Source of the DNA: Eledone cirrhosa
Lineage: Eukaryota
DNA length: 64,000 nucleotides
Assembly (NCBI GenBank): GCA_964016885.1
Contig: OZ024753.1
Span: forward strand, 12,524,001 to 12,588,000
Direction of reading: 5' to 3'
Every line of letters starts with the position of its first letter. Position 1 is the first letter of the stretch. This document shows, piece by piece, positions 47,769-64,000 of this stretch. A program made the translations under genes and the position numbers. Below the pieces are notes generated by a model, which had not been told where the DNA came from, ran no database searches, and worked only from the letters and a program-made list of their open reading frames with translations.

Positions 47769-49448
47769 TGTTTGAAGTGAAAATATTCTGGGCTCCAGTC
47801 AACTTTTTAATGGAAAGATGAAATTTGATATAGAAACCAGCTTTTGCCGATGAAATGGATCGCGGCCCTTCCTCTCACTCTTCTACCACCACCACCACCG
47901 CTGTGCATGGCAGAGGTCCAGCCTCTGAAGACAGGCCCAAGGCCGGCTGCTCTTGGGACTGCCGCCAGATAGCGATGTTCGACCCATTTATCTAATCTAA
48001 TCTAATCTGGCCGAGTTACACTCTCAAAAAAGAAGAACCACGGCCGTCCCTAGGAGCAGTGGATGTGGTGTACTTCATATTTGTTTCGGTTGCTGAATAC
48101 AATCGGGGGTCGCTGCTTCTCTTCTAACTCGAGTGGGAGCACCTTCTCCATTGTCAATTTGCATTGATCATCTGCAAAGCCACATTGTTCTCAGAAACAC
48201 TACACCAGTCTAGAGATGTGTGTAGCTGGAACTACTCCCCCCCCCCACATTGATTTGGCAGGATTCTTTTTATTTATTTATTTATTATTTTTTAGATGGC
48301 TGTTGACTCTTATGAGTTCTTCCGCCCTTTGACAGGTTTAGTTTTTTGTTCTGCAGGGTGTCCTAAATCACCCACCTCAACAAGCAAGTTTGATGGGGTT
48401 GCCGGTTTAATCGCCGACTATCTGGCCATGCGACAGGTTGTACAGGGGTTACATGCTACCAGTAGCACTCAAGAGTGACCTGGCTGATAGTTCAATATAT
48501 AGGTATTCGTGCCAGCCCTTAGCTATGGTCACGGATCTTGGGTAATACCTCAAAGAATACGATCGCGAATACAAGCGGCCGAAAAGGGGTGTCTGCGAAG
48601 GGCATTATGAGTAACGTTGCTCGATAGTGTGTGTAGCTTGGAGATCAGAGTTGCTCCAGGTGGAGCCATTACGTTTCCGAATTGAGAGATAACAGCTCCG
48701 TTACTATGAGCATGTGGTTAGAATATCTCAGAAAAAAATCGCTGGGCAGATTTGAAGAAGAAGAAAAAGAAGAAGAAAAGAAGTAGAAGAAGAAGAATTC
48801 AATTGATATGTTACCGGCCAAACGTGTTATTCGCCGAGCAATTAGTATATCTATCTCCCACACATACAAGAACTGCTACTTGAGAATTTCGGACATATGC
48901 TGAAAATGTTTTCCCTTCGATTTATATGAAATTTAAACCAGAGGTAAATGACAAGATATTATGCCTATTTAAAAAATGTTGAATCGATATTTTAAAAAAA
49001 ATTATTTACAAGAAACAAAATAAGAATAAGATTTCATAATTGTTTCTACTTTTGGCACAAGGCCAGCAAATATCCAGTACATTACTGGTACTTTATTTTA
49101 TTGACCCCGTAATATAAAGAATAAGATTTAATAATGTAATTTTGATTTGATATATTACCAAAAAATAATGTTTTTCAATTTTTCATGCATTACATTTTAC
49201 ATTGAGTAATATTGAAATGCAGATTTTTTTCCATAAATTATATCACTGATTTAAAATCAATCATCATTTTCTTACAAAAGAAAAATGTGTGAAACGCGGC
49301 AAGGCGTGGGTATTTCGGCTAGTATATATATATATATATAGTAAGAATGTTTTCGAAACAGCGAGTATTTTGAATAAAGAAATTAAAGAAATTATTTAGC
49401 CTGATAGTGGGGTTAAGAACCCTCGGAGAAATGGAAAGAGATGAGTAT

Positions 49449-50265: not shown

Positions 50266-50914
50266 TGCATTTCATCCTTACGGGGTCGATAAAATAAAGT
50301 ACCAGTAATGCACTGGGTAATTGCTGGCCTTGTACCTAAAGTGGAAACAATTATATTATATTATATTATATTATATAAAGTACCAGTAATGTACTGAAAA
50401 ATTGCTGGCCTTGTGCCAAAAGTAGAAACAATTATATTATATTACATTATATTATATAAAGTACCAGTAATGTACTGAGTAATTGCTGGCCTTGTGCCAA
50501 AAGTAGAAACAATTATATTATATTACATTATATTATATAAAGTACCAGTAATGTACTGGTAATTGCTGGCCTTGTGCCAAAAGTAGAAACAATTATATTA
50601 TATTACATTATATTATATAAAGTACCAGTAATGTACTGAGTAATTGCTGGCCTTGTGCCAAAAGTAGAAACAATTATATTATATTACATTATATTATATA
50701 AAGTACCAGTAATGTACTGAGTGATTGCTGGCCTTGTGCCAAAAGTAGAAACAATTATATTATATTACATTATATTATATAAAGTACCAGTAATGTACTG
50801 AGTAATTGCTGGCCTTCTGCTAAAAGTAGAAACAATTATATTATACTATATTATATTATATAAAGTACCAGTAATGTACTGGTAATTGCTGGCCTTGTGC
50901 CAAAAGTAGAAACA
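50266..50914 (+). repeat. SINE-derived minisatellite: eight ~81-bp units of the SINE 3' end plus (TTATA)n tail
   Basis: aaagtaccagtaat...aaagtagaaacaattatattata starting at ~50296, 50377, 50458, 50539, 50619, 50700, 50781 and 50862. Confidence 0.9.
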
Positions 50915-51274
50915 ATTATATTATATTATATTATACTACATTTGATTATATTATATTATATAGATATTATATTATTTTATATTACATTATATTATATTAT
51001 ATTATATTATACAGAATTATATTATATTATATTACAATATATTATATTATATTATACAATATTATAGTATACAGTATTGTATTATATTATTATATATTTT
51101 TTCAATCTTATATTGAGATGGATTAATATATATTCACAATGCTTGTTTTTAAGGCTATTTCTGCAATAAACACAAACATACTCTCATGTGTATGTATGTA
51201 TATTGTATTAGTGCGTATGTACACACACACACGCATATATATATTTATCCTTATATGCATATGTATCTATCTAT

Positions 51275-51759
51275 AAAAACGAAAGAGGGGCAGTTTTCCT
51301 CTGTACAGTGGCTATGGTGAAAGTGGTTATATGGTGACGAGATTTAGAGGACTGAGGACAGATGCCTTTCTCTCCGGACAACAATCGATTCCCTTCTTTA
51401 AGTATCACTTTAGAAGGAGAATCAGAGTGGGGAGAGAGGCACAGCACCCCAGTAAATTTACTGAAAGGTGGGTGAATGTGTCAAAAATGGCCCGAGTATT
51501 TGGGCCATCTCTGTTTATAAGCCTGTATGTTAAAGAAGAGAGCAAAAGGAAGAAAAGAGCACTTGCATAACACGCTCCTGAAGTTGAGGTCTGTTCTATC
51601 GACGGCGTATTAAACAAGCCATTTCTGGCGCTTGCCCCCTATGGGGATTTCGATTGTTATAATTGTTTGTTTTATATTTTTCACACGACTGTATGTAAAA
51701 TCCCCGGCATATCTTTGTATTGTCCCCTTTTCTTGTGCGCCCTTGTGGCAAATAAAGAA

Positions 51760-51809
<50 letters not shown>

Positions 51810-51816
51810 ATATCTA
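51275..51816 (+). mobile_element. 5'-truncated Tx1/L1-group LINE (same family as 57356-61419) with (TCTA)n tail
   Basis: High identity to 60915-61419; preceded by tatctatcta; ends AATAAAGAAA(TCTA)n. Confidence 0.9.
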
Positions 51817-52015
51817 CTTTTTTCGGGGGTGTGTGCCACCCTCCAAGGCGCCTCCTCTCTATTGAGGACTTTGTTATAAATTTTATATTTTGTTATATTT
51901 TATTTTATTTTTATATATTGTTATTGCCTCCTCCTTATTGAGGACGCCTTGTTTTGTAAACTCCCCCCATTGTACTTGTCCCACTTTTGATGCCCTGGTG
52001 GCAAATAAAAGAAAC

Positions 52016-52081
<66 letters not shown>

Positions 52082-52087
52082 TTATCA

Positions 52088-52137
<50 letters not shown>
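51817..52137 (+). mobile_element. 3' UTR fragment of a second Tx1-like family (as 56074-56285) with long (TCTA)n tail
   Basis: Matches the reverse complement of 56084-56285; starts directly after the previous tail. Confidence 0.85.
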
Positions 52138-52392
52138 GAAAAGCGTCAGGACCTTGACGGTTGAGATCCGGCCGTTTCGACAGCTAGATCCGAGCTAAGT
52201 TATATTGGATATAGCTGTTGAAACGGCCGGAGTTCAGCAGTCGGGTTCCTGACTCTTTTTCATATTACCCACTCTACTACCTTAATTATCGACTACGTTA
52301 CTGTCTAGCTGCCACAGCTTCTTTGTTTTACATCATGTATATATTAATATACATATATTTTTTCATATATGTATATATATATATATATATAT

Positions 52393-52745
52393 ATTAGGTA
52401 TAGGATTATCCAAGATGTAGTAATGGTTAATTACTACACTGGATATGGTTGACGTACGGTAAGAGGTTACTCTACGAGTTATGGAAGAATTGTTCAAGAA
52501 ACTTAGTTCCTGATCCTTCAGTATTCCGGAGTGTAGATAAAGAATGAATAATAACAGGTAGACATCATAAAAAGGTAATTTATTCCGTGTGCTTACAAAT
52601 GTTTCCACGGCGGTACTGCAGCCTAGTTATGCTACGTGCAAATTCACAAGTACTTGCAGAACTCGAATATCCAATGCTGTGACAAATGCTTGTAAGCACA
52701 CGGAATAAATTACCTTTTTATGATGTCTACCTGTTATTATTCATT

Positions 52746-52750
<5 letters not shown>
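52393..52750. mobile_element. (TA)n-flanked IR cassette (arms ~52537-52598 / 52691-52750), related in layout to 4158-5053
   Basis: Minus strand GAAAC-ATTT-GTA agcacacggAATAAA (hammerhead 3' half); tattccggag motif shared with ~4250. Confidence 0.55.
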
Positions 52751-52804
<54 letters not shown>

Positions 52805-52808
<4 letters not shown>

Positions 52809-53085
52809 GTTATACTTGGGGAGGGTCATATTGTTATAATATTGCCAGAAAGAATAACAGAACAAACTCACTGTTTGGTTTGGCTTGGTTTTCGCTTCTG
52901 TATCTTTTATATCTCTATAGTTAATTTATCTGGCAAAAATTAACTATGGTAATATAACAAGATACAAAAGCGAAAACCAATCCGAACCAAACAGTTAGTG
53001 TTTTCTGTTATTATTTCTGGCAATATTATAATAGCATGACCCTCCCCAAGTACAACAATATTTGTTTCGACACACGATTTCATAT
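52805..53085. mobile_element. Palindromic cassette centred ~52932 plus tail
   Basis: Arms 52808-52926 and 52940-53058 are imperfect reverse complements. Confidence 0.7.
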
Positions 53086-53240
53086 CACCTTATGCAGATC
53101 TTCAGCTGAAGATCCGTATAAGGTGAAACAGTTGTTCTAGGTAATGTGAACTAACTCTTGTGTTACCACTTCTACCAAACTAGTCCCATGGACTGAGTGC
53201 TTTACCATTACGGATATTACCGTACGGTTTTCTACCTATC
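53085..53240 (+). mobile_element. Cassette with fold-back exactly at the hammerhead core (cag|CTGAAGA)
   Basis: tcaccttatgcagatcttcag|CTGAAGA t-cc-gtataa-gg-t GAAA cagtt GTT; stem I 5' strand replaced by the inversion. Confidence 0.55.
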
Positions 53241-53246
53241 TCTCTC

Positions 53247-53316
<70 letters not shown>

Positions 53317-53317
<1 letters not shown>

Positions 53318-53507
53318 GTTATTCCGGGTTGAATCGGAGGTAACCACAGTAAGTAAGGTACTCAATACATTGCAGAGTATAAAAGTTTTAATATAGATGA
53401 GATTCTACAGGACTAGAACTGTTTCATTCTTTAGAAATCATCAGGAATCTTTAGAGATTCCTGATGATTTCTAAAGAATGAAACAGTTCTAGTCCTGTAG
53501 AATCTCA

Positions 53508-53510
<3 letters not shown>
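53317..53510. mobile_element. Twin-hammerhead palindromic cassette, dispersed copy with both folds intact
   Basis: Minus-strand fold 53400-53450 and plus-strand fold 53454-53506; long (TA)n on both sides. Confidence 0.85.
53454..53506 (+). ncRNA. Type I hammerhead ribozyme
   Basis: gagattc CTGATGA t-ttc-taaa-gaa-t GAAA cag-ttctagtc-ct GTA gaatctc; 7-bp stem I, 4-bp stem III, predicted cleavage after 53499. Confidence 0.8.
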
Positions 53511-53545
<35 letters not shown>

Positions 53546-54337
53546 AGATATGTGTGTATATATTTATGCCGGTTAGTATCTTTCGACATCGTTTCACGTT
53601 CTTCAGTGTTCAATTTCAGAATCATTTACGCTTCTCTCATTTACGCTTTCTTTATCATTATTCCGTGTAAAAACAACACAAAACGAAACAAATAAATCTC
53701 ACACCGTCTCCAGAATTCTATTTGCTCAGCATGACGACATATATATTAAGTCATATAAATATAACTTTCTAATACAACTACTTTTTTTTAGAGAAAGTAT
53801 AATATATTATATCCTTAGCAAAAAGGTGGAAAAACGATATAATGTAGTATGTGAAAGAATGATAAGGGATATATATCAGTAACTCTCAAACACTTGAACA
53901 ATCCTATATGGTAATGTTGACTATCTGGAAAGAAAAAAAAAAACGAAATGAAAATCATTTTGCACTTTATTATTATCTATAACACAACTTCCTTGTGTAA
54001 ATAAAACAAATATTTGTCAGTAAAGAATAGCAAGAGATAATTACAGAATGAAAAGCAACTCTGAAAGACTTAAGAATATATATAAACAAAAGAATGTAAG
54101 TAACCTTATTAAGAATAGCAACAATAATCACACTGTTCCAGAGAATAGAAAATAGAATTAGATAAATATAGAAGAGTAAAGCAATATATAATGAGTTCAC
54201 TATTGTTTTTTTTATATTTTCTATATCCTTCTTCTTATCTTTGAGAATCATATCATCTCACCCCTATTTTTCACAAACTTACTCTTTTTTTTGCTTTCTC
54301 TTTATATATATATATATGAATTTATGTATATGTAAAC

Positions 54338-54388
<51 letters not shown>

Positions 54389-54500
54389 AAGACTTTGAGG
54401 GGCGACTGGCCGAGGTGAAGAAAGCTAGTTAGTCAGTCGTCCTCTCAGTCTCTGATTTTTCGGACCCATGGTTTTTACATATTCCTTTGTTATATTTCGA

Positions 54501-54558
54501 ATACTTGATGATATCACCGGATTCATATGGAACCCGGTCATTGAAATGATCATAGTAT
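54501..54558 (+). ncRNA. Hammerhead fold with C3-to-U core change
   Basis: atac TTGATGA t-atcaccgg...ccggtcat-t GAAA tgatc ATA gtat; palindromic ATGATCAT stem III; followed by AATAAA, a ttgagtac motif and (TA)n. Confidence 0.55.
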
Positions 54559-55245
54559 AATAAATCTTTCAAGGATTTACACCAGTCCAGCCTCCTGTTA
54601 TTTTGTTTATAATTAACTCCGTATTAGCACCACCAACTACACAAACGAAGACGGGTGAACTGCACTACGTTGAGTACTTTCCACAATATTACACCAAGAT
54701 TGACCATACAGAATGACCAATTCTATCCAGTGGTGAACCAACAAACCTAAAGAAATATATATATATATATATATATATACATAGCTATAATATGTCTCTG
54801 TATGTCTGGGTGTCTGCATTAGATACATAGCTATAACGTTGCACGCTTATAATATCTGTCTGTCTTCACGAACCAAAGTATCGTCTTCCTGTTTTCCTTC
54901 GGTTGCAACGTTTTTCGAAATATTTACTTCTGCGTTCACAGATTGATTTTTTTTAGTTTCAGAATATCCCGTTAAGGTCGAAAGCAGCGATTCTTTGCTT
55001 AAACTTTAATCTGTTATTTTAATATATATATATATATTATAATTATATATTCGTGTATTATATATTCGTGTATATATTCTATTTTCATATATTCTTTCCT
55101 TTGTTCAATAACCTTTATTTAACCTTTCTTCTATCCAACTTATATATATTATTATTCCTTCCCTTTTACACTCATAATAATTCGTCCATTATACTATAAC
55201 AGAGAGACATCCTTCCCTCCATATGTCTTTGTCTCTATCTATCTA

Positions 55246-55930
55246 GCGCGACCAGGAAACCGTCGCGCACGCATTTGTACACTGCCCGAGCGTTACCGAC
55301 TGTGGGGCTATGTAGAACGACTATTGTCGCGGGTGGGACCAATCCAGTTGACCACCGAGTCCATTGTCATGATCAAACCGCCACCCTCCTTCAAAAACGA
55401 GGGAGAGGCGGTTTTCCTATGTATTATGGCTATGGTGAAAGAGGTTATATGGTGGAAGAGGTTAAAAGAGATGAGGTCAGACACCTTTCTCTCCGGCGAG
55501 CAACTGATTCGTTTTTTCAAATATCATTTTGGGAGAAGAATCAGGATGGAGGGAGAGGTGCTATACCCCAGAAAATGTTATATAAGGTGGGTGAATGTGG
55601 CAAAGATGGCCCGAGTGGTTGGGCCTTCTCTCTCTATAAGCCTGTAGGTTGAGGAAAAAGAGGAAGAGAGGAAGGGCGTACTCACTCTTGGTACTCCTGG
55701 AGATGAGGGTTGTACATTTTTTCGGGGTGTGTACAACCCCTGTGTAACGCCTCCCCCCCTGTTGGGGATATCAATTGTTATTTGTTATTTTATTCATAGT
55801 TTTATTTTCATATACCTGTATGTAAACTCCCAATTTGTATTTGTCTCCTTCTTTTGTGCCCTTGTGGCTAATAAAGAAAAACATTTACCTATCTATTTAT
55901 CTGTATGCCTGTATGTCTATTTTATATATA
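55246..55930 (+). mobile_element. 5'-truncated Tx1-like LINE (ORF2 C-terminus, 3' UTR, degenerate TCTA tail)
   Basis: ETVAHAFVHC...SRVGPIQLTTESIVMIKPP...RWVNVAKMARVVGPSLSISL*; begins right after ctctatctatcta. Confidence 0.9.
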
Positions 55931-56073
55931 GTTTATTGTTATTCATTATTGTTAAAGATTTTATGTAAAACCTCCGCCGTCACGTCTTGTAATGTCCCAT
56001 TTTTGTACCCCATTGTGGCAAATAAAGAAATATATCTATCTATCAATATATCTATCTATCTATCTATCTATCT
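55931..56073 (+). mobile_element. Short Tx1-like 3' end fragment with (TCTA)n tail
   Basis: gtggcaAATAAAgaaa-tatatctatc; identical inverted copy at 57244-57355. Confidence 0.8.
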
Positions 56074-57243
56074 TGATAGATAAGTTTCTTTTATTTGCCA
56101 CTAGGGCATCAAAAGTGGGACAAGTACAAAGGGGGGAGTTTACACAAAAAGGCGTCCTCAATAAGGAGGAGGCAATAACAAAATATAAAAATAAAATAAG
56201 ATATCACAAAAAATAAAATTTTTAACAAAATCCTCAATAGAGAGGAGGCGCCTTGGGGGGTCGCACACACCCCCGAAAAAAGTGTGCAACCCTTCTCCTC
56301 AGGAGCACAGAGAAGGGGTGCTCCCTTGGTCTTTCATCTTCCTCACCTATAGTCTGATGTAGAGTGAAGGCCCATTCACACGGGCCATTCTCGCCACTTT
56401 CACCCATCTTTCATAGAAACGGCTGGGGTGCAGCACCTCTCTCTCCATCCTGATCCTTCTTCCGAAATGATATCGGAAGAAACGGACCAGTTGTTGGCCA
56501 GAGAGAAAGGTGCCCGACCTCAGTCCTTTCAAACGCCTCCACCATACAACCTCTTTCACCATGGCTATTAGGCACAGAAACACCGCCTCTGCTTCATCTT
56601 TGAAGGGGGGAGGCGGCTTGATCATTACAATAGACTCGGTGGTCAACCGGATCGGTCCCACCCTTGACAGCAGTTTTTCGACATAGCCCCACAGATCGGC
56701 TGCGCCCGAGCAGTGTACCAATGCGTGTGCAACGGTTTCCTCGTCGCACACGCATCTGGGACAGATCTTTTTGGCGGGGTCCCTACCCGGGCGCCCGTGT
56801 CTGTAGAGCCTTTCTCGAACGGGTAAAGCCCCTCGGTAGCACTGCCAGGCCAGGGACTTCTGGAAGTTGTCCATAGGTCCCGGGCTGAATGTCCTACCGA
56901 ACAGGCTGGCCAGTTCGTCCTCCTCCATGTCTAGGGCTTCTCCGAGGGCGTCGTCGCACCTGCTGCGTACCAGCCCTCTATAGAATGTTGCGGTGGAGTC
57001 TCCACTGATAACCGGATCCGCCTGCCAGAGGGCGGTGAGCGCCTGGGCAACCTCAGTGTGCCAGGCGCCCAGTTTTCTCGGTCTTTGCTTGACCCAGGAT
57101 TGCAGCTCGGTGAGTGAGACGAGTCTGGGAAAGGTTCGTCTCACAAACGAGGCCCACACCGGTTGTCCGGTGAGGAATACGTAGAGGTGCCGTAGCCTTA
57201 ATGCGTGTTTACGCATCATTAGCCACGGCATCCCCAGCCCTCC
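56074..57243 (-). mobile_element. 5'-truncated Tx1-like LINE (ORF2 C-terminal ~298 codons, 57243-56347)
   Basis: GGLGMPWLMMRKHALRLRHL...CPRCVCDEETVAHALVHC...GPSLYIRL*; starts right after the tatctatcta tail of the 57244-57355 fragment. Confidence 0.92.
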
Positions 57244-57355
57244 TAGATAGATATATTTCTTTATTTGCCACAATGGGGTACAAAAATGGGACATTACAAG
57301 ACGTGACGGCGGAGGTTTTACATAAAATCTTTAACAATAATGAATAACAATAAAC
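57244..57355 (-). mobile_element. Short Tx1-like 3' end fragment
   Basis: Exact reverse complement of 55931-56042. Confidence 0.8.
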
Positions 57356-60300
57356 AAACAATACAACAAAAACACAAACAACAATACGCATACGTCAACA
57401 CAAACAACAAGAGTTTGATGGAGGTCATCTCCCAAAACCCCAAGGTGGAGACGGAGGGCAAAACTTTCGTCAAGGCAGAATCGTCTCCACACCTTAAACT
57501 TATAAGGGTTTCTATGGAAACCTATAAAGACCTGGAAATTAAATTTTCACAGGACGTGGGCAACCCCTGCCACAAACCCATCAACCGCGTCCTGTTGAAA
57601 GGTTTCCCCACCCCACCCAACACCCCATCCAGCACCCAAATGGAGATTGAACAACCCGATCTCCAGGAAACGAAAAGGTAAGTGCACCTTTCGTCCTTTT
57701 TCTCCAACTTTTCTTCACCAACATGGCTGGTTTTCGAGTTGGAACCGTGAATGTGCGTGGCCTAGGGATGCCCTGGAAACAGGGCCAACTTTTAAACGAC
57801 CTTAGGTCACACAGTATGGATGTGATAGCCATCACCGAGTCCAGAATCCACAACAGGCAGCAACTAACCCCCATCTTCGACGACTTTGAGATATACGCAT
57901 CTCTCTGTCAGCCAGGAGGTGGAGGTGGAGTGGCTGTTATGTTTCGGAAGAACCTGGACGTCGGAGTACAGCAAGTACTCTTGGACCCGGAGGGTAGACT
58001 GGTAGTCCTAGACGTGAACAGTATCGGAGGTGGAGCCTTCAGACTGGTGGCCGTTTATGCCCCGACCGGGCAATCGCAATCACGGCCAGACTTCTTTAAG
58101 CGTCTAGAGTCTTTTCTGGGAACGTCTCGCTCCTTACTTTTAGTGGGGGACTGGAATGGTATCCTAGATGCACGATGGGACTATGTGGGAGCATGTCCCA
58201 GTAGAGCGGGGTGCAACAGCCTCAAAACTTTAATCGGCCAATTCCAACTGGCCGATAGGTATCGACTGGATTTCCCGACTGCACCACAGTGGACGTGGGT
58301 AAACCGCAGTGGGACATCTAGATCGTATTTAGATAGGTTCTTCATTAGAGAAAGGGACAAGGATATGTTAAGCTGTCCACGAATGCACATGGTTGCCTAT
58401 TCAGATTACAAGTTAGTCGTCTGCTTAGTCAACCGTGATAGAATACATAGACAGGGTCCCGGATACTGGAAGCTGAACGTGTCGTTGCCGGCACGTAAAG
58501 CTTACAGTGAACGGATAAGTAAACTAGTCAAGCAACAGTTAACGGGAGCCATCGTCAACAATAGATGGTGGTACTCTCTCAAGAAAGCAATTAGAATAGA
58601 ATCGATAGGGTATAGCAGAGAGTTAGCCTTAGAGAAAAACAGAATAGAAAGAGAACTAGTAGCCAAGGTAGAGGAGGCACTTAGAAGTGGCAACGCGGCT
58701 AGAGTGTTAGCGTCGAGAACGGCACTGGACCAGTTCTTCGATGCGAAACACGAAGGCTGCGGGGTCAGAAGCAAAACACGTGCTCTAGGAAACGAAGGAG
58801 CGAAAGCTGTCAGCTGGGCCCGAGTGGCGGAGGCAAAAAGTGGCAACAAGTCCACGATTCGGTCTTTGAAAGACCAAAACGGACGCGTGCTACTTGACCC
58901 CAAGCAGATGTGCGCGGCCTTTCAGTGGCACTTTGCGCGACTGTTTGAGCAGAACGACGGTGAGCCGAACGGGGCAATGGACTTTAGTTCATACCTCGAC
59001 GGCCTGCCGCGTCTCTCGAACACGAACGCCGAGTTCTGCGAAAGACCGATCACGGACACTGAGATACGGGACGCTCTGGGCCGCTGCGGGAAACGCAAGT
59101 CACCCGGTCTAGATGGTCTACCCTAGGAATTTTACATAGGCATGCCGGACTTGTTCTCTGGCGTCCTCGAAGCCGTCTACTGCAATTGGCAGCAGAACAG
59201 GAGAATTCCCAGTTCTGCAGGCAAGGGCGTAGTGACGCTGATCAGGAAAGACGAGAACAAGGGGGACGAAATTAACAACTTCAGGCCCATAACTCTGCTC
59301 AACACAGAGTTAAAGATTTTGGCCAAGGTGCTAGCGACGAGGTTGGCGCTTGTCGTCGAGAACCTGGTAGGGAAAGCGCAAACGTGTGCAATCCCGACCA
59401 GGTCCATACACGACAACCTCCACCTCATGCGATACATCATAGAGAGGGTGGGTAGTAAACCCGGCTTCGGTGGGGCTCTGATCAACTTGGATCAGTCTAA
59501 GGCATTCGATAGGGTCGACCATCGATACTTGGAAGCGGTTCTCAAGGCGGCCGGTTTCGGTCCCGTGTTCAGAGGATGGATCGAGGCGATGCACACCAGC
59601 ATCTGCTCGAGGGTCAAGGTGAACGGCTACCTATCGGAGCCGTTCGCAATCACGGGTTCCATTCGACAGGGATGCCCTCTCTCCTCCATTCTGTATGTAT
59701 TGACTCTAGAGCCACTACTGCGGAAATTGGAGCTGTTGCAGGGCATCCCCCTAGAACCGGGACTGCGCAAAGCGGCGTTGGCTTATGCTGACGACGTGAC
59801 AGTAATGGTGTCGAGCACCTCGGAAATCGGGGTGATCGGCAACATACTGAAAGAATACGAAACGCTGACGGGAGCAAAACTAAACCCAGACAAGTCTGTC
59901 GGTTTGCAACTCGGTACGTGGAGAGGCAAACCGATGACATCCGACAGCGTCGTTGGACGCTGGACGGATGGACCGGTGAAATTGCTCGGGGTCTGGTTCG
60001 GTCCAGACCTCCAGGTGGAGAAAAACTGGAACGAGGTCACGGCCAAGGTGTTTGCACTCACTCAGAAGTGGGCAGAGTGCAAACTGTCCTTGAAAGGTCG
60101 AGCGGAGGTGGCGAACACTTTCATAGCGTCCGTCATCTACTACCGCTTGACTGTCGTGCCTTGTCCCCGTGAACACCTCGCCAAGATGGAACGCATGCTC
60201 TTCCAGTTTCTGTGGAAGAAGCAGGCTCCGCTGGTGAGGAGATCCGTCTGCTGTCAGCACCCTTCCAACGGAGGGCTGGGAATGCCGTGGCTGATGATGC

Positions 60301-61419
60301 GCAAACATGCGCTGAGGCTGCGGCATCTCCAGGTATTCCTCACCGACCCCCAACCGGTGTGGGCACCGTTTGTGAGACGGGCTTTCCCACAGCACGTCTC
60401 GCTAACGGAGCTGCAGTCCTGGGTGAAGAAAAGACCGAAAACGATGGGCGCCTGGCACATTGAATGCGCTCAGGCGCTCACAGTCCTCTGGCAAGCGGGC
60501 GCAGCAATCAGTGGAGACTCCACTTCGACATTCTATAGAGGGATTGTACGTTACAAGGGCGACGACGTGCTCGGAGAGTCTCTGGGCGTCGAAGACGATG
60601 AGCTCACCAGTATGTTTGGTAGGACTTTCCGCCCGGGACCTATGGACAACTTCCAGAAGTCCCTGGCCTGGCAGTGCTACCGAGGAGCTCTACCGGTTCG
60701 TGACAAGATCTACAGGCACGGACGCCCTGGCAGGGATCCTTCCAAGAGGACGTGTCCAAGATGTGCGCAGGACATTGAAACAGTTCTGCACGCAATTGTA
60801 CACTGCCCGGGCGTAAGCGACCTGTGGAACTATGCAGAACAACTGCTGTCGCGTATGGGACAAATACAGTTGACTGCCGAGTCCATAGTAAGGATCAAAC
60901 CGCCAGACTCTTTCAAAAACGAAAGAGAGGCGGTTTTCCTCTGTACGGTGGCTATGGTGAAAGAAGTTATATGGTGGACGAGGTTGAGAGGACTGAGGAC
61001 AGATGCCTTTCTCTCCGGACAACAATTGATTCCATTCTTTAAGTATCACTTTAGAAGGAGAATCAGGGTGGAGAGAGAGGCACTGCACCCCAGTAAATTT
61101 ACTGAAAGGTGGGTGAATGAAGCGAAAATGGCCCGAGTGATTGGGCCTTCTCTGTTTATAAGCCTGTAGGTTGAGGAAGAGAGCAAAAGGAAGAAAGGAG
61201 CACTTGCACAACACGCTCCTTGAGTTGAGGGTTGTTCTATCGACGGGGTATTAAACAACCCATTTGTGGCGCCTCCCCCCTATTGGGGATTTCGATTGTT
61301 GAAATTGTTTGTTTTTATATTTTTTTACACGACTGTATGTAAAATCCCCGGCATGTCTTTGTATTGTCCCCTTTCTTGTTGCGCCCTTGTGGCTAATAAA
61401 GAAATCTATCTATCTATCT
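57356..61419 (+). mobile_element. Tx1/L1-group non-LTR retrotransposon truncated within ORF1
   Basis: ORF1 C-terminus (to 57681), ORF2 57723-61169, 3' UTR with AATAAA at 61395 and (TCTA)n tail. Confidence 0.95.
57723..61169 (+). pseudogene. ORF2: APE endonuclease, reverse transcriptase and C-terminal Cys/His motif; one in-frame TAG at 59124-59126
   Basis: EN motifs VNVRGL, ITES, VYAP, VGDWN, YLDRFF, SDY; RT motifs PGLDGLP*EFY, FRPITLLN, LDQSKAFDRVDH, RQGCPLS, YADD; CPRC...HAIVHC; the two ORF-track ORFs share one frame. Confidence 0.93.
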
Positions 61420-61621
61420 TGATAGAGTAAGACACGCTTCACATCGGCTCCGCTATTCCATCGGGATTTACCCTTACTATTGTAAGTACCGGATAAATTT
61501 TTCAGTGCAACACATTTGGAACATTAACCCCTGTTATTTAGGGAAACATTTTTGCATTTACCCCCTTTTTAGGGGGTAAAATAAATATCTAATTTTGCCG
61601 AAAAATTTCGTTCTTGGCAGC

Positions 61622-63442
61622 ATGGCGGAAAAGATGGCAGACATATCTGCCATTAGCTCTGCCACGCCCCCCAAGTCTGAAGAACAAAAAATAATTACAA
61701 CAAAATTAGACAACGAAACAAACAAAGAAAATGAAAAAACAAATGTTAAGGAAAATGAGCAAACGGAAAACAAACAAACAGAACATAATACAAATAACAA
61801 CAGGGCAACTTTCGCCCAGAAAACAAAACAATCCATTACATACACACCAATTGACCTAACGGCCGCCAGAGAAAAACTGGCCGAAGCAAAGAAACACATT
61901 GTTTTGGGGGAAAATGGAATGTTTTCCATTAACTCCCCCCCCCCAGAATTCAAGAAAGCGAGAACAGAGAACACAGTTCTCTTCAGAACAATCCTAAACG
62001 AAACAAGAAAGCCAGCACAGCCCAGCCAAATGGAGATAGAGTTGGTCCTAAAAGACTATATGAAGAATATTCTCTTCATACGAAAGGACCGACTCTATGG
62101 CAGCATTTCGGTCCTAACAAAAGACAAGGAAACGGCGGAGAAGCTTTCCATAAGCCCACTCTCATCGACAACATACAGCTTCTATCCCTCCTACATGGGT
62201 AGAAGAACACAGAGAGTAAAAATACAAACAATGCTGCCCACAATGGACTTCTGGTGGGCTATTGCTGGCTTCATAGACATGGGCGAGGACACAGTGCTGT
62301 CAATGGGGAAGGCATCCGGAGATGCGTTCCTGGGAATGGGCCTCGACCTACTAGTCCAAATGAGGCCCGAAAGAATAGCACAAATCCCGGATCGCATCTG
62401 GCTGGATGAGCTCACCCCAATAGATATAATTGTAGAGGGGAGAAGACCAGCATGCTATTTATGCATGGAAAGGGGACACATTAAGGCTAACTGCCCGAAA
62501 CGTGTCCCCCAAAAAGGACTATTGCCCATACCCACCACAAACAGTACACCAACACCACCCACCTCCAAAAATACACTAATACCACACACAGCAAACAAAA
62601 TACAAACACCACCAAGCACATCACCACCACCAGCAGCAAACACAAGCTCGACACAAAAATCACCACCACCATCACCAACACAAACACCATCACCACCATT
62701 ACCAACCACAAGCACGACACAAACAGCACCACCACCACTACAAAACGCATTCCAAACAAATAATAAAAAAAACAGCAACAAATCTACCCCTCCCGCAAAA
62801 AAAAACCAGACACGACGTCCCTCCCACCTAGCGCTGAAGAGTTTCCCCCAACTTCTGAAGAAGAAGGAGGAGAAGCCTTCAGACAAGTTAAAAGAAAAAA
62901 AAGAAAGCACACACCCAGCACACCACAAATAACCCACACACAAACACCAACTCCAATAAAAAACACCCCACCCTCAACAAACAAAAATAAATCTGCGCCT
63001 CCCCTCTCCGAAACATTGACAGCATCACAAAAAAAGACATTGCAATACACATATATAAATAAAGAAAACAAAAAACTGTTTAAATTAATAAACAATAGCC
63101 CTTTGGTGCAGACCGAAGGGCCAAACTTTATCTCAACAGAGAACTTCACCCATTTAAAAATGATAAAGGTCCCTCTGGACCTTTATCGTTCCTTAAAAGA
63201 ACAATTTAGACAGGACGTGAGCCCCCCCCCCCTGTTTAAAACCGTTAAATCGGGTCCTCTTGAAAGATTTCCCCATAACCTCCCCTCTCCCTGACACAAC
63301 TCCAAACACCCCAACCCAACCACACTCGGGCACCCCCACACCACCACAAAACATCCCTCCACCCAACACACCTGACGCCATGGAAATTACACAACCCGGG
63401 GAGGTAAGTGCTTTTCTTTCTTCACTTTCAACACCAAAATAG
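61622..63442 (+). CDS. ORF1 (gag-like, CCHC zinc knuckle, Pro/Thr-rich), frameshifted near 62800 and 63280
   Basis: CYLCMERGHIKANC = CX2CX4HX4C; shifted frame reads EEEGGEAFRQVKRKKRK...LQYTYINKENKKLFKLINNSPLVQTEG, homologous to 57370-57681. Confidence 0.8.
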
Positions 63443-64000
63443 ATCAATTGAGAGTTGGCTGTTTGAACGCGCGTGTCCTGGGCTCAGCTTGGAAGCAAGC
63501 AAAGCTACTAAGTGACCTCAGGTCACGAAGTATAGATGTGATGGTTGTTTGCGAGAGTCGGATCAGCAGCGTGCGACAGCTGGCTCCCGCCTTCGATGAA
63601 TTTGAGATGCACGCATCTCTCTGTCAACCCGGAGGCGGGGGGGGGGGGGGGGTTGCCGTACTGCTGGATAAACGTCTGGCTCTCGACGTACAGATTGTTC
63701 ACTCGGACCCGGGGGGTCGAATACTGGTGCTGGACGTCGGAGGCGGTGAAGGCGGGGCTTTCAGACTGGTCGGTCTTTATGCCCCCTTCGGGGCTGAAAG
63801 AGCCGACTTCTTCCAGCGTCTGGAGACTTTTCTAGGAACGTCGCGTTCCCTGCTTTTAGTGGGGGACTGGAATGGAATCCTAGATGCGCGTTGGGACTAT
63901 GCAGGGGCATGTCCCGATAGAGGGGGGTGTAGCAGCCTCAAGGGGTTACTCGATCGATTCGACCTGGTCGATAGATTTCGACTAGATTGTCCAACTGCGC
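63439..64000 (+). CDS. ORF2 N-terminus (APE endonuclease), partial and open to the window end
   Basis: IDQLRVGCLNARVLG...VCESRI...GVAVLL...LYAP...LLVGDWNGILDARWDY; collinear with the 57723 ORF. Confidence 0.88.
   Translation, partial: MDQLRVGCLNARVLGSAWKQAKLLSDLRSRSIDVMVVCESRISSVRQLAPAFDEFEMHASLCQPGGGGGGGVAVLLDKRLALDVQIVHSDPGGRILVLDVGGGEGGAFRLVGLYAPFGAERADFFQRLETFLGTSRSLLLVGDWNGILDARWDYAGACPDRGGCSSLKGLLDRFDLVDRFRLDCPTA

Follow-up and report, generated by a model that had tools for sequence, protein, structure and literature searches.

Young L1/Tx1-group LINEs at TCTA microsatellites in Eledone cirrhosa and a possibly RNA-inherited choice of insertion site

The insertions of five LINE subfamilies (A to E) in the genome of Eledone cirrhosa are probably best explained by short-motif targets and a two-step choice of site, consisting of a loose nick and pairing of the RNA 3' end. 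The selector is likely this pairing, in which the 3' end of the RNA anneals to nicked DNA. The balance tips slightly towards a target specificity that is inherited through the RNA, in which the place where a master copy has landed supplies the guide carried at the 3' end of its RNA; a single landing would then have moved a lineage of some 100 copies away from TCTA microsatellites and onto dispersed CAATAT sites, without a change in the endonuclease. Subfamily A consists of two lineages, A1 ending in TCTATCT and A2 ending in TCAATAT. Gain, change, and loss of targets by site-specific LINEs are usually attributed to endonuclease evolution; in the A1/A2 pair, a natural experiment has set the RNA end apart from the endonuclease, so the question can be tested with a single swap.

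Element class and cluster layout

Judging from their sequences, subfamilies A to E are young LINEs of the L1/Tx1 group. ORF2 carries the Pfam domains Exo_endo_phos, RVT_1, and zf-RVT (the last below its cut-off, E 2.6e-5), and its best PDB match is human L1 ORF2p (E 5e-55), with R2 at E 5e-22. The hallmarks of TPRT are present, namely a shared 3' end, variable 5' truncation, and TSDs. Members of the Tx1 clade have two ORFs and a CCHC zinc knuckle in ORF1; the ORF1 of subfamily A carries CX2CX4HX4C, matching this Tx1-type two-ORF layout. No Pfam match was obtained for the ORF1 part of E, and the homologues returned by sequence searches included no named Tx1 sequences. Exact genome counts gave 1,050 TCTAT-ended and 125 TCAAT-ended A copies, and copies with an open ORF2 occur in both A1 and A2. 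The E head gave no Rfam match near the gathering score for a 5' ribozyme, none of the five 3' ends (0/5) folded better than shuffled sequences (z -0.57 to 1.0) when a conserved 3' hairpin was sought, and no spliced ORF2-less retrocopies were retrieved among the fetched loci, the narrow search patterns making this a weak test.

The window, i.e. the whole stretch of 64,000 nucleotides analyzed, contains 12 (TCTA)>=2 runs, nine of which fall within 51.2-61.5 kb, where the copies are clustered (Table 1). The original prediction had listed seven AATAAA(A)GAAA ends followed by TCTA in this cluster. All seven were retrieved (51751, 52004, 55870, 56021, and 61395 on the plus strand; 56095 and 57265 on the minus strand) and TCTA, exact or degenerate, comes after every one of them, although at 55870 and 56095 it is only degenerate or short; the window contains 14 motifs of this type, the remaining seven without a TCTA repeat downstream. 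The end at 57265 is not a separate one, as it lies within the inverted D duplicate. The five listed 5' junctions indeed come after TCTA, but the list omitted that of the largest element, the A1 copy, whose junction at 57356 is not at TCTA, and the element at 61420, called truncated, is a full-length E copy with its 5' end there. The older A-like copy matches 60915-61419 at 91%, the ORF2 of the A1 copy contains a single in-frame stop (59124-59126), and the two copies of a 23-nt duplication flank the head-to-head B(-)/A(+) pair.

Table 1. Features of the LINE cluster in the window
Feature	Position	Strand	Basis
TCTA remnant of the original target, 5' of the first insertion	51264..51274	+	sequence
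Older A-like subfamily copy, 5'-truncated: ORF2 end, 3' UTR, AATAAAGAAA	51275..51760	+	
(TCTA)~14 run into which the next copy inserted	51761..51816	+	
3' fragment of a subfamily B copy (199 nt), nested within the run behind the A-like copy	51817..52014	+	
(TCTA)~30 array	52016..52137	+	
(TCTA)3, 5' junction of the C copy	55234..55245	+	
Subfamily C copy, 5'-truncated, 634 nt; degenerate repeat then runs to ~55917	55246..55879	+	
3' fragment of a subfamily D copy (113 nt), nested behind C; then TCTA run to 56073	55918..56030	+	
23-nt direct duplication, left copy: TCTA run and first E-head bases	56058..56080	+	
B-type copy, 5'-truncated	56085..57243	-	
D 3' end, exact 112-nt inverted duplicate of 55931-56042; patch separating B(-) and A(+)	57244..57355	-	
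Subfamily A, lineage A1 copy, 5'-truncated inside ORF1	57356..61404	+	
ORF2 of the A1 copy: APE endonuclease, reverse transcriptase (YADD), zf-RVT	57723..61169	+	
23-nt direct duplication, right copy	61404..61426	+	
Subfamily E element, 5' part; whole element 5,692 nt, full-length, extending past the window	61420..64000	+	
E element parts: 5' UTR, ORF1 (CCHC knuckle; open frame 61580-62932), ORF2 start		+	

TCTA preference across the genome and the origin of the flanking repeats

Among the top-scoring (youngest) matches, which are not a random sample, 117 of 150 copies had TATCT behind their 3' end, compared with 0.21% of a 280-kb background containing 18 arrays. It occupied positions +3 to +7 past AAAGAAA in 19/30 copies of A, 25/30 of B, 23/30 of C, 21/30 of D, and 29/30 of E. 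The 5' junctions were counted on 108 of 117 resolved rows, nine rearranged or duplicated rows being left out. At least 8 nt of TCTA was present within 25 nt upstream of the 5' junction in 13/23 truncated A and 19/24 truncated B copies (32/47 together) and in all 50 full-length E heads (background 0.21%), 49 of which are preceded by TATCT. The proposal that several subfamilies favor TCTA repeats holds genome-wide and above chance, the 5' flanks of dispersed copies being strongly enriched. Against the criterion of more than 20% target-repeat flanks, as given in PMC4494074, A1 reached 56/62, B 19/24 (5' flanks), and E 50/50, with C and D exceeding it on their 3' flanks only. TCTCT was found at only 5 of 150 junctions; the (TC)n or (TTC)n target of Kibi and Koshi proper is not the one used here. 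Some A1 and B copies occupy isolated TATCT sites (L025, L027, L334). A B lineage aimed at TA repeats was considered and rejected: the four copies at CATATAT have the haplotypes of copies at TATCT, indicating mismatch tolerance. Nesting in the ends of other copies, also part of the original prediction, was found for E (26/50) and full-length A1 (22/35) versus about 3/18 background arrays (by eye), but for B (9/30) it was not significant.

An element-written TCTA tail was not borne out, as the 3' repeat is target sequence duplicated as TSD. Indeed, the 3' run never exceeded the target run at the 18 informative junctions (18/18, of which only two concern E; 87 of 105 junctions were uninformative), with the caveat that TCTA runs may alter in length after insertion. 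The junction phase is fixed and the repeat lies inside the TSD itself, which measures about 9-22 nt. New TCTA arises from the TSD and from the TCTA-like 5' leader of full-length copies. The 5' flank of full-length A copies ends in TTTCTGTCTA in 36 of 40 cases, and in four copies (L377, L384, L390, L422) the leader TTTCTGTCTA comes after the TSD in TCTA-free DNA.

Two lineages of subfamily A with different sites

In pooled, de-duplicated counts, A1 copies lie in TCTA repeats in 56/62 cases and have TCAAT ends in 1/62, whereas A2 copies have TCAAT ends in 27/27 and TCTA in 0/27, their sites being AT-rich and repeat-free; the de-duplication was crude, merging some unrelated TCTA-rich flanks, and counted L329 and L422, probably one insertion, as two. 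TCTA was present in the 5' flanks of 12/18 A1 versus 0/17 A2 copies, and A2 falls below the 20% criterion, the target repeat flanking none of its 27 copies and none of 18 further TCAATA copies. When test copies were chosen by internal SNPs alone, not by end sequence, 22/25 new loci with 5283A ended in TCAAT, versus 0/29 with 5283G. TSDs of the A2 type start with the same AATA motif in 12/22 truncated and 9/13 further copies; 10 of 22 truncated TCAAT copies lack a TSD of at least 9 nt.

No fixed amino-acid difference between A1 and A2 was found in the endonuclease (eight A2 copies covering it entirely). The fixed differences are two silent sites, D932Y in ORF2 (4918T; 25/25 A2, 1/42 A1), and a Q>R change in a Q/T-rich stretch of ORF1. 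The link between haplotype and end is not absolute: three 5283A copies end in TCTATCT, and L433 and L441 carry A1 alleles, yet have TCAATA ends at repeat-free sites. Furthermore, one-mismatch TCAATCT sites were used by L012 and L434 (both A1) and L446 (untyped).

Proposed mechanism, known systems, and alternatives

Insertion with TSD takes place at short motifs, the top strand reading roughly TAWY|WATMT. After a loose endonuclease nick, about 5-7 bases of the RNA 3' end would pair with the nicked strand. The RNA may read past AAUAAA into the flank of the master copy and carry that flank along, flank-derived bases rather than immediate poly(A) coming after AAAGAAAUC; from the DNA junctions, its end would be UCUAUCU in A1 and UCAAUAU in A2. 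Reverse transcription would begin two bases past AAAGAAA, and progeny would land where the RNA end can pair. As each TSD would put a fresh TATCT right behind the 3' end of the inserted copy, with a TCTA leader contributed in addition by full-length copies, later copies could re-use the site and nested arrays would grow, accounting for the TCTA arrays and nested LINE clusters of this genome. Lineage A2 likely goes back to a copy that inserted at a CAATAT site and then served as master, retargeting its progeny without endonuclease change. Since A1 and A2 are near-identical and have the same endonuclease, but differ in end and in sites, the last letters of the RNA likely help to choose; targeting had been placed on the endonuclease by analogy with Kibi and Koshi, and the pair suggests the RNA end as a co-determinant. 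If true, the family would represent a naturally occurring RNA-steered LINE that can be reprogrammed, relevant to the programming of gene insertion by LINEs.

As far as the accessible parts of the cited papers go, Kibi in (TC)n, Koshi in (TTC)n, and crocodilian Tx1 families in (TTCC/TTTC)n (PMC4494074, PMC3812793) are likewise APE-type LINEs in pyrimidine-rich microsatellites, well above the 20% threshold, but TATCT/(TCTA)n is absent from their described targets and, unlike Kibi and Koshi, the present family has an offshoot off the repeat with the endonuclease unchanged. Such targeting is ascribed mainly to the endonuclease (PMC4494074), its mechanism being described as not well understood (PMC3812793). 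No TCTA-specific Tx1 family was found in the papers searched. For RTE-clade LINEs and AfroSINEs, a correlation between 3' repeats and the start of the TSD has been described (PMC6007223, citing Gilbert 2008), and there too the 3' RNA end is proposed to pair with the target and may switch the integration site; that overlap spans 1-2 bases, the repeat forms the element tail, and the pair compared is non-autonomous, whereas the present case has 5-7 bases, an autonomous pair of ~99.9% identity, and an almost complete switch, and lacks an added tail. The L1 snap-velcro model similarly combines a nick with RNA-primer complementarity over the last bases (PMC3649969, PMC4014453), but L1 pairs via poly(A), while the present copies lack poly(A) and apparently pair via flank-derived sequence. 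RNA-target annealing at initiation is shared with SART1 and R1Bm (PMC7265360; R1Bm per PMC6007223), which are R1-clade elements with a single stringent target and for which the available text of these two papers notes no natural retargeting.

Alternatively, the protein may set specificity, ORF2p reading the target as the Tx1L endonuclease does, the shift of A2 stemming from D932Y or the ORF1 change, and the junction bases being merely target. This is rather unlikely, as the endonuclease lacks a fixed change, residue 932 varies among relatives (D/E/D/A), and there is one case each way of uncoupling, L351 carrying 4918T inside a TCTA array and L441 carrying 4918G at a TCAATAT site. It does agree with the almost exclusive nicking by Tx1L-EN of its own site (PMC1950540) and with stringent elements in which swapping endonucleases swaps targets (PMC4014453); D932Y and the ORF1 change are inherited together with A2, subfamilies A, B, and E have a common predicted hairpin-loop stretch (NRSG.SR), and the bases upstream of the nick are non-random too.

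Strict (TCTA)n specificity with a new TCTA tail made at each insertion, as originally predicted, is very improbable overall and is contradicted for A and B. It suits E (a 3' run of at least 9 nt in 25/30, and the 5' end in 50/50), but no 3' units were added at any informative junction (0/18), the target comes down to a short core motif, A1 and B also use isolated TATCT sites, and A2, without TCTA at either end, avoids TCTA repeats. Hardly credible is an absence of any targeting, with passive build-up in repeats or tails created by slippage after insertion. This genome is rich in microsatellites and its TCTA runs mutate fast, yet TA repeats, about 100-fold commoner than TCTA in the background (25,868 versus 224 nt), are seldom used, the junction phase is fixed, and the repeat lies within the TSD; the TCTA enrichment of the 5' flanks refutes this explanation.

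Target preference at both junctions

The LINE group (subfamilies A to E of the L1/Tx1 type) preferentially targets TCTA. Among 150 loci picked solely by their 3' UTR, six of which were the window's own copies, AAAGAAA was directly followed by two bases fixed per subfamily (mainly TC, CA, TT, GA, and TT) and then by TATCT in 117 loci, versus 0.21% in a background of 28 stretches of 10 kb. TATCT extended into a run of at least 9 nt at 10/21 to 25/29 junction sites, versus 50/1,201 in the background. The original prediction of TCTA targeting also held for the 5' flanks of dispersed copies, which held at least 8 nt of TCTA for 13/23 truncated A copies, 19/24 truncated B copies, and all 50 full-length E copies, compared with 0.21% of random windows (9 of 117 resolved rows were dropped and four more copies were unresolved).

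The TCTA tail had been thought to be regenerated by the element. Instead, the 3' repeat is duplicated target: where it ended within 24 nt and unique sequence followed, the same unique sequence recurred at the 5' junction as TSD. Furthermore, the 3' run was equal to the target run in three, shorter in 15, and longer in none of the 18 informative junctions (87 of 105 were uninformative). Repeat is carried in by full-length copies at their 5' end; TTTCTGTCTA preceded 36/40 A heads (5' ends), and a TCTA-like leader of 19–26 nt followed the TSD in repeat-free DNA at L377, L384, L390, and L422, the last two probably being duplicates of one insertion. As the TSD contains the target repeat and full-length copies add this leader, arrays would grow via both. 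E copies picked by their 3' end were full length in 28/30 cases, compared with 4/30 for A, and TATCT preceded 49/50 E heads, even with a short 3' repeat; annealing of the leader to the target may help E copies retain an intact 5' end.

Two lineages of subfamily A and site selection

Among the first 30 A copies, ten had a TCAAT end and lacked TCTA, and internal SNPs tracked this ending. In a blind test, the search used one internal 206-nt segment per haplotype, located about 500 nt from the end; new loci ended in TCAAT in 22/25 cases for 5283A (A2 lineage) and 0/29 for 5283G (A1 lineage), one further locus being left unscored. Pooled after crude de-duplication, A1 copies ended in TCTATCT in 58/62 and were accompanied by TCTA in 56/62 cases, and A2 copies ended in TCAAT in 27/27 and had TCTA in 0/27 cases. 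The TSD started with the lineage's own motif in both, and the bases immediately upstream were alike (TAWY). Exact genome counts were 125 copies ending in TCAAT and 1,050 in TCTAT.

The best reading of these sequences is a loose nick of the target, followed by site selection through pairing of 5–7 bases of the RNA that lie downstream of where reverse transcription starts and were likely inherited from the flank of a master copy by read-through. Alternatively, target choice may be set by the protein, via D932Y in ORF2, which is one of the fixed A1/A2 differences, together with two silent sites and an ORF1 Q>R change. No fixed amino acid change in the endonuclease was found among eight A2 copies spanning the whole domain; L235F occurred in 2/10.

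Exceptions to the split were three 5283A copies with a TCTATCT end. Of 20 further TCAAT copies sampled (four chosen as suspect, 16 spread), 18 were TCAATA with a TCTA-free 3' flank and two were TCAATCT variants within TCTA runs. Two of the 18 carried A1 alleles; recombination or a sister lineage may explain them.

Tx1 families specific to microsatellites have been described with (TC)n, (TTC)n, (TTCC)n, and (TTTC)n as targets (PMC4494074, PMC3812793), whereas the target is TCTA here. The literature searched, with Repbase and supplements outside its scope, yielded no TCTA-specific Tx1 family; excerpts of PMC9659126 and PMC4640811 held nothing further on TCTA, and those of an octopus repeat annotation (PMC13282606) list 13 recently active L1-Tx1 families without the word "target". 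The TCTA preference alone is a further case of known microsatellite targeting; the A1/A2 pair, a natural experiment, is the new aspect that sets this group apart. RNA-target pairing has been demonstrated for L1 (PMC3649969, PMC4014453) and proposed for SART1 (PMC7265360), and target switching via the 3' repeat has been proposed for RTE elements from 1–2-base overlaps (PMC6007223), compared with the 5–7 bases proposed here.

Nesting and the cluster in the window

Insertion into an older copy's end was found for 26/50 E (p = 0.012), 22/35 full-length A1 (p = 0.002), and 9/30 B copies (p = 0.49), versus about 3/18 background arrays, whose older-copy ends were counted by visual inspection as the search pattern had missed them. 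Of the nested E heads, 20/26 lay only 11–27 nt from the older end, at or near the same site. A duplicated E head with a short piece of upstream element end between both heads (L167:9121-9147) resembles the outcome of RT jumping between templates on reaching the 5' end of the RNA.

Features of the window
Feature	Position	Remarks
LINE pieces	51264-61425	two clusters
Largest LINE piece	57356-61404	ORF2: APE endonuclease, RT, zf-RVT; one stop
23-nt direct duplication	56058-56080 = 61404-61426	bounds head-to-head B(-)/A(+) pair
B(-)/A(+) pair	56058-61426	joined via exact 112-nt inverted copy of local D end
Splice-like motifs	57678, 61167-61170, 63405	donor-like GTAAGT shortly upstream of ORF2 in A and E; acceptor-like AG at ORF2 stop
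Old fragments	37540-37766 (-), 47902-47985 (-)	~70% identical, related to this ORF2
(TA)n-rich arrays	8073-20018, 32961-35956	12 kb and 3 kb
41-bp minisatellite	41318-45849	
81-bp tandem repeat	50294-50935	shares sequence with SINE-like repeat
SINE-like repeat	36419-36684	

All seven previously noted AATAAA(A)GAAA 3' ends were present, one being an exact inverted duplicate of its neighbour; position 61420, taken for a 5'-truncated junction, is a full-length head. The 5' junction at 57356 was not located at TCTA. The 23-nt duplication suggests that the B(-)/A(+) pair is a single complex insertion primed on both strands, possibly from two RNAs, although successive insertions combined with an inversion, or misassembly, may also account for it. 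Narrow patterns retrieved no spliced retrocopy. A resemblance among SINEs suggests that the host may be a cephalopod.

Human L1 ORF2p was the top match of the largest piece's ORF2 among solved structures, and the architecture makes placement in the Tx1 clade plausible. Genome searches with the five 3' ends gave 582–1,715 first-look candidates per query, top matches being 94–100% identical. ORF2 identity was 74% (A-E), 77% (A-B), and 85% (B-E), and ORF2 was open over at least 1,130 aa in 7/14 A, 0/5 B, and 4/56 E loci examined. Unnamed relatives P0002-P0028 were 38–44% identical, their clusters reaching 732 members in other assemblies. Tx1-like copies also occurred as tandem units spaced 6.2 kb (L152-L155; C1:271.07-271.10 Mb) and 5.7 kb (L269-L270), and one B copy (L042), bounded by a clean TSD, carried a short inversion of the twin-priming type at its 5' end.
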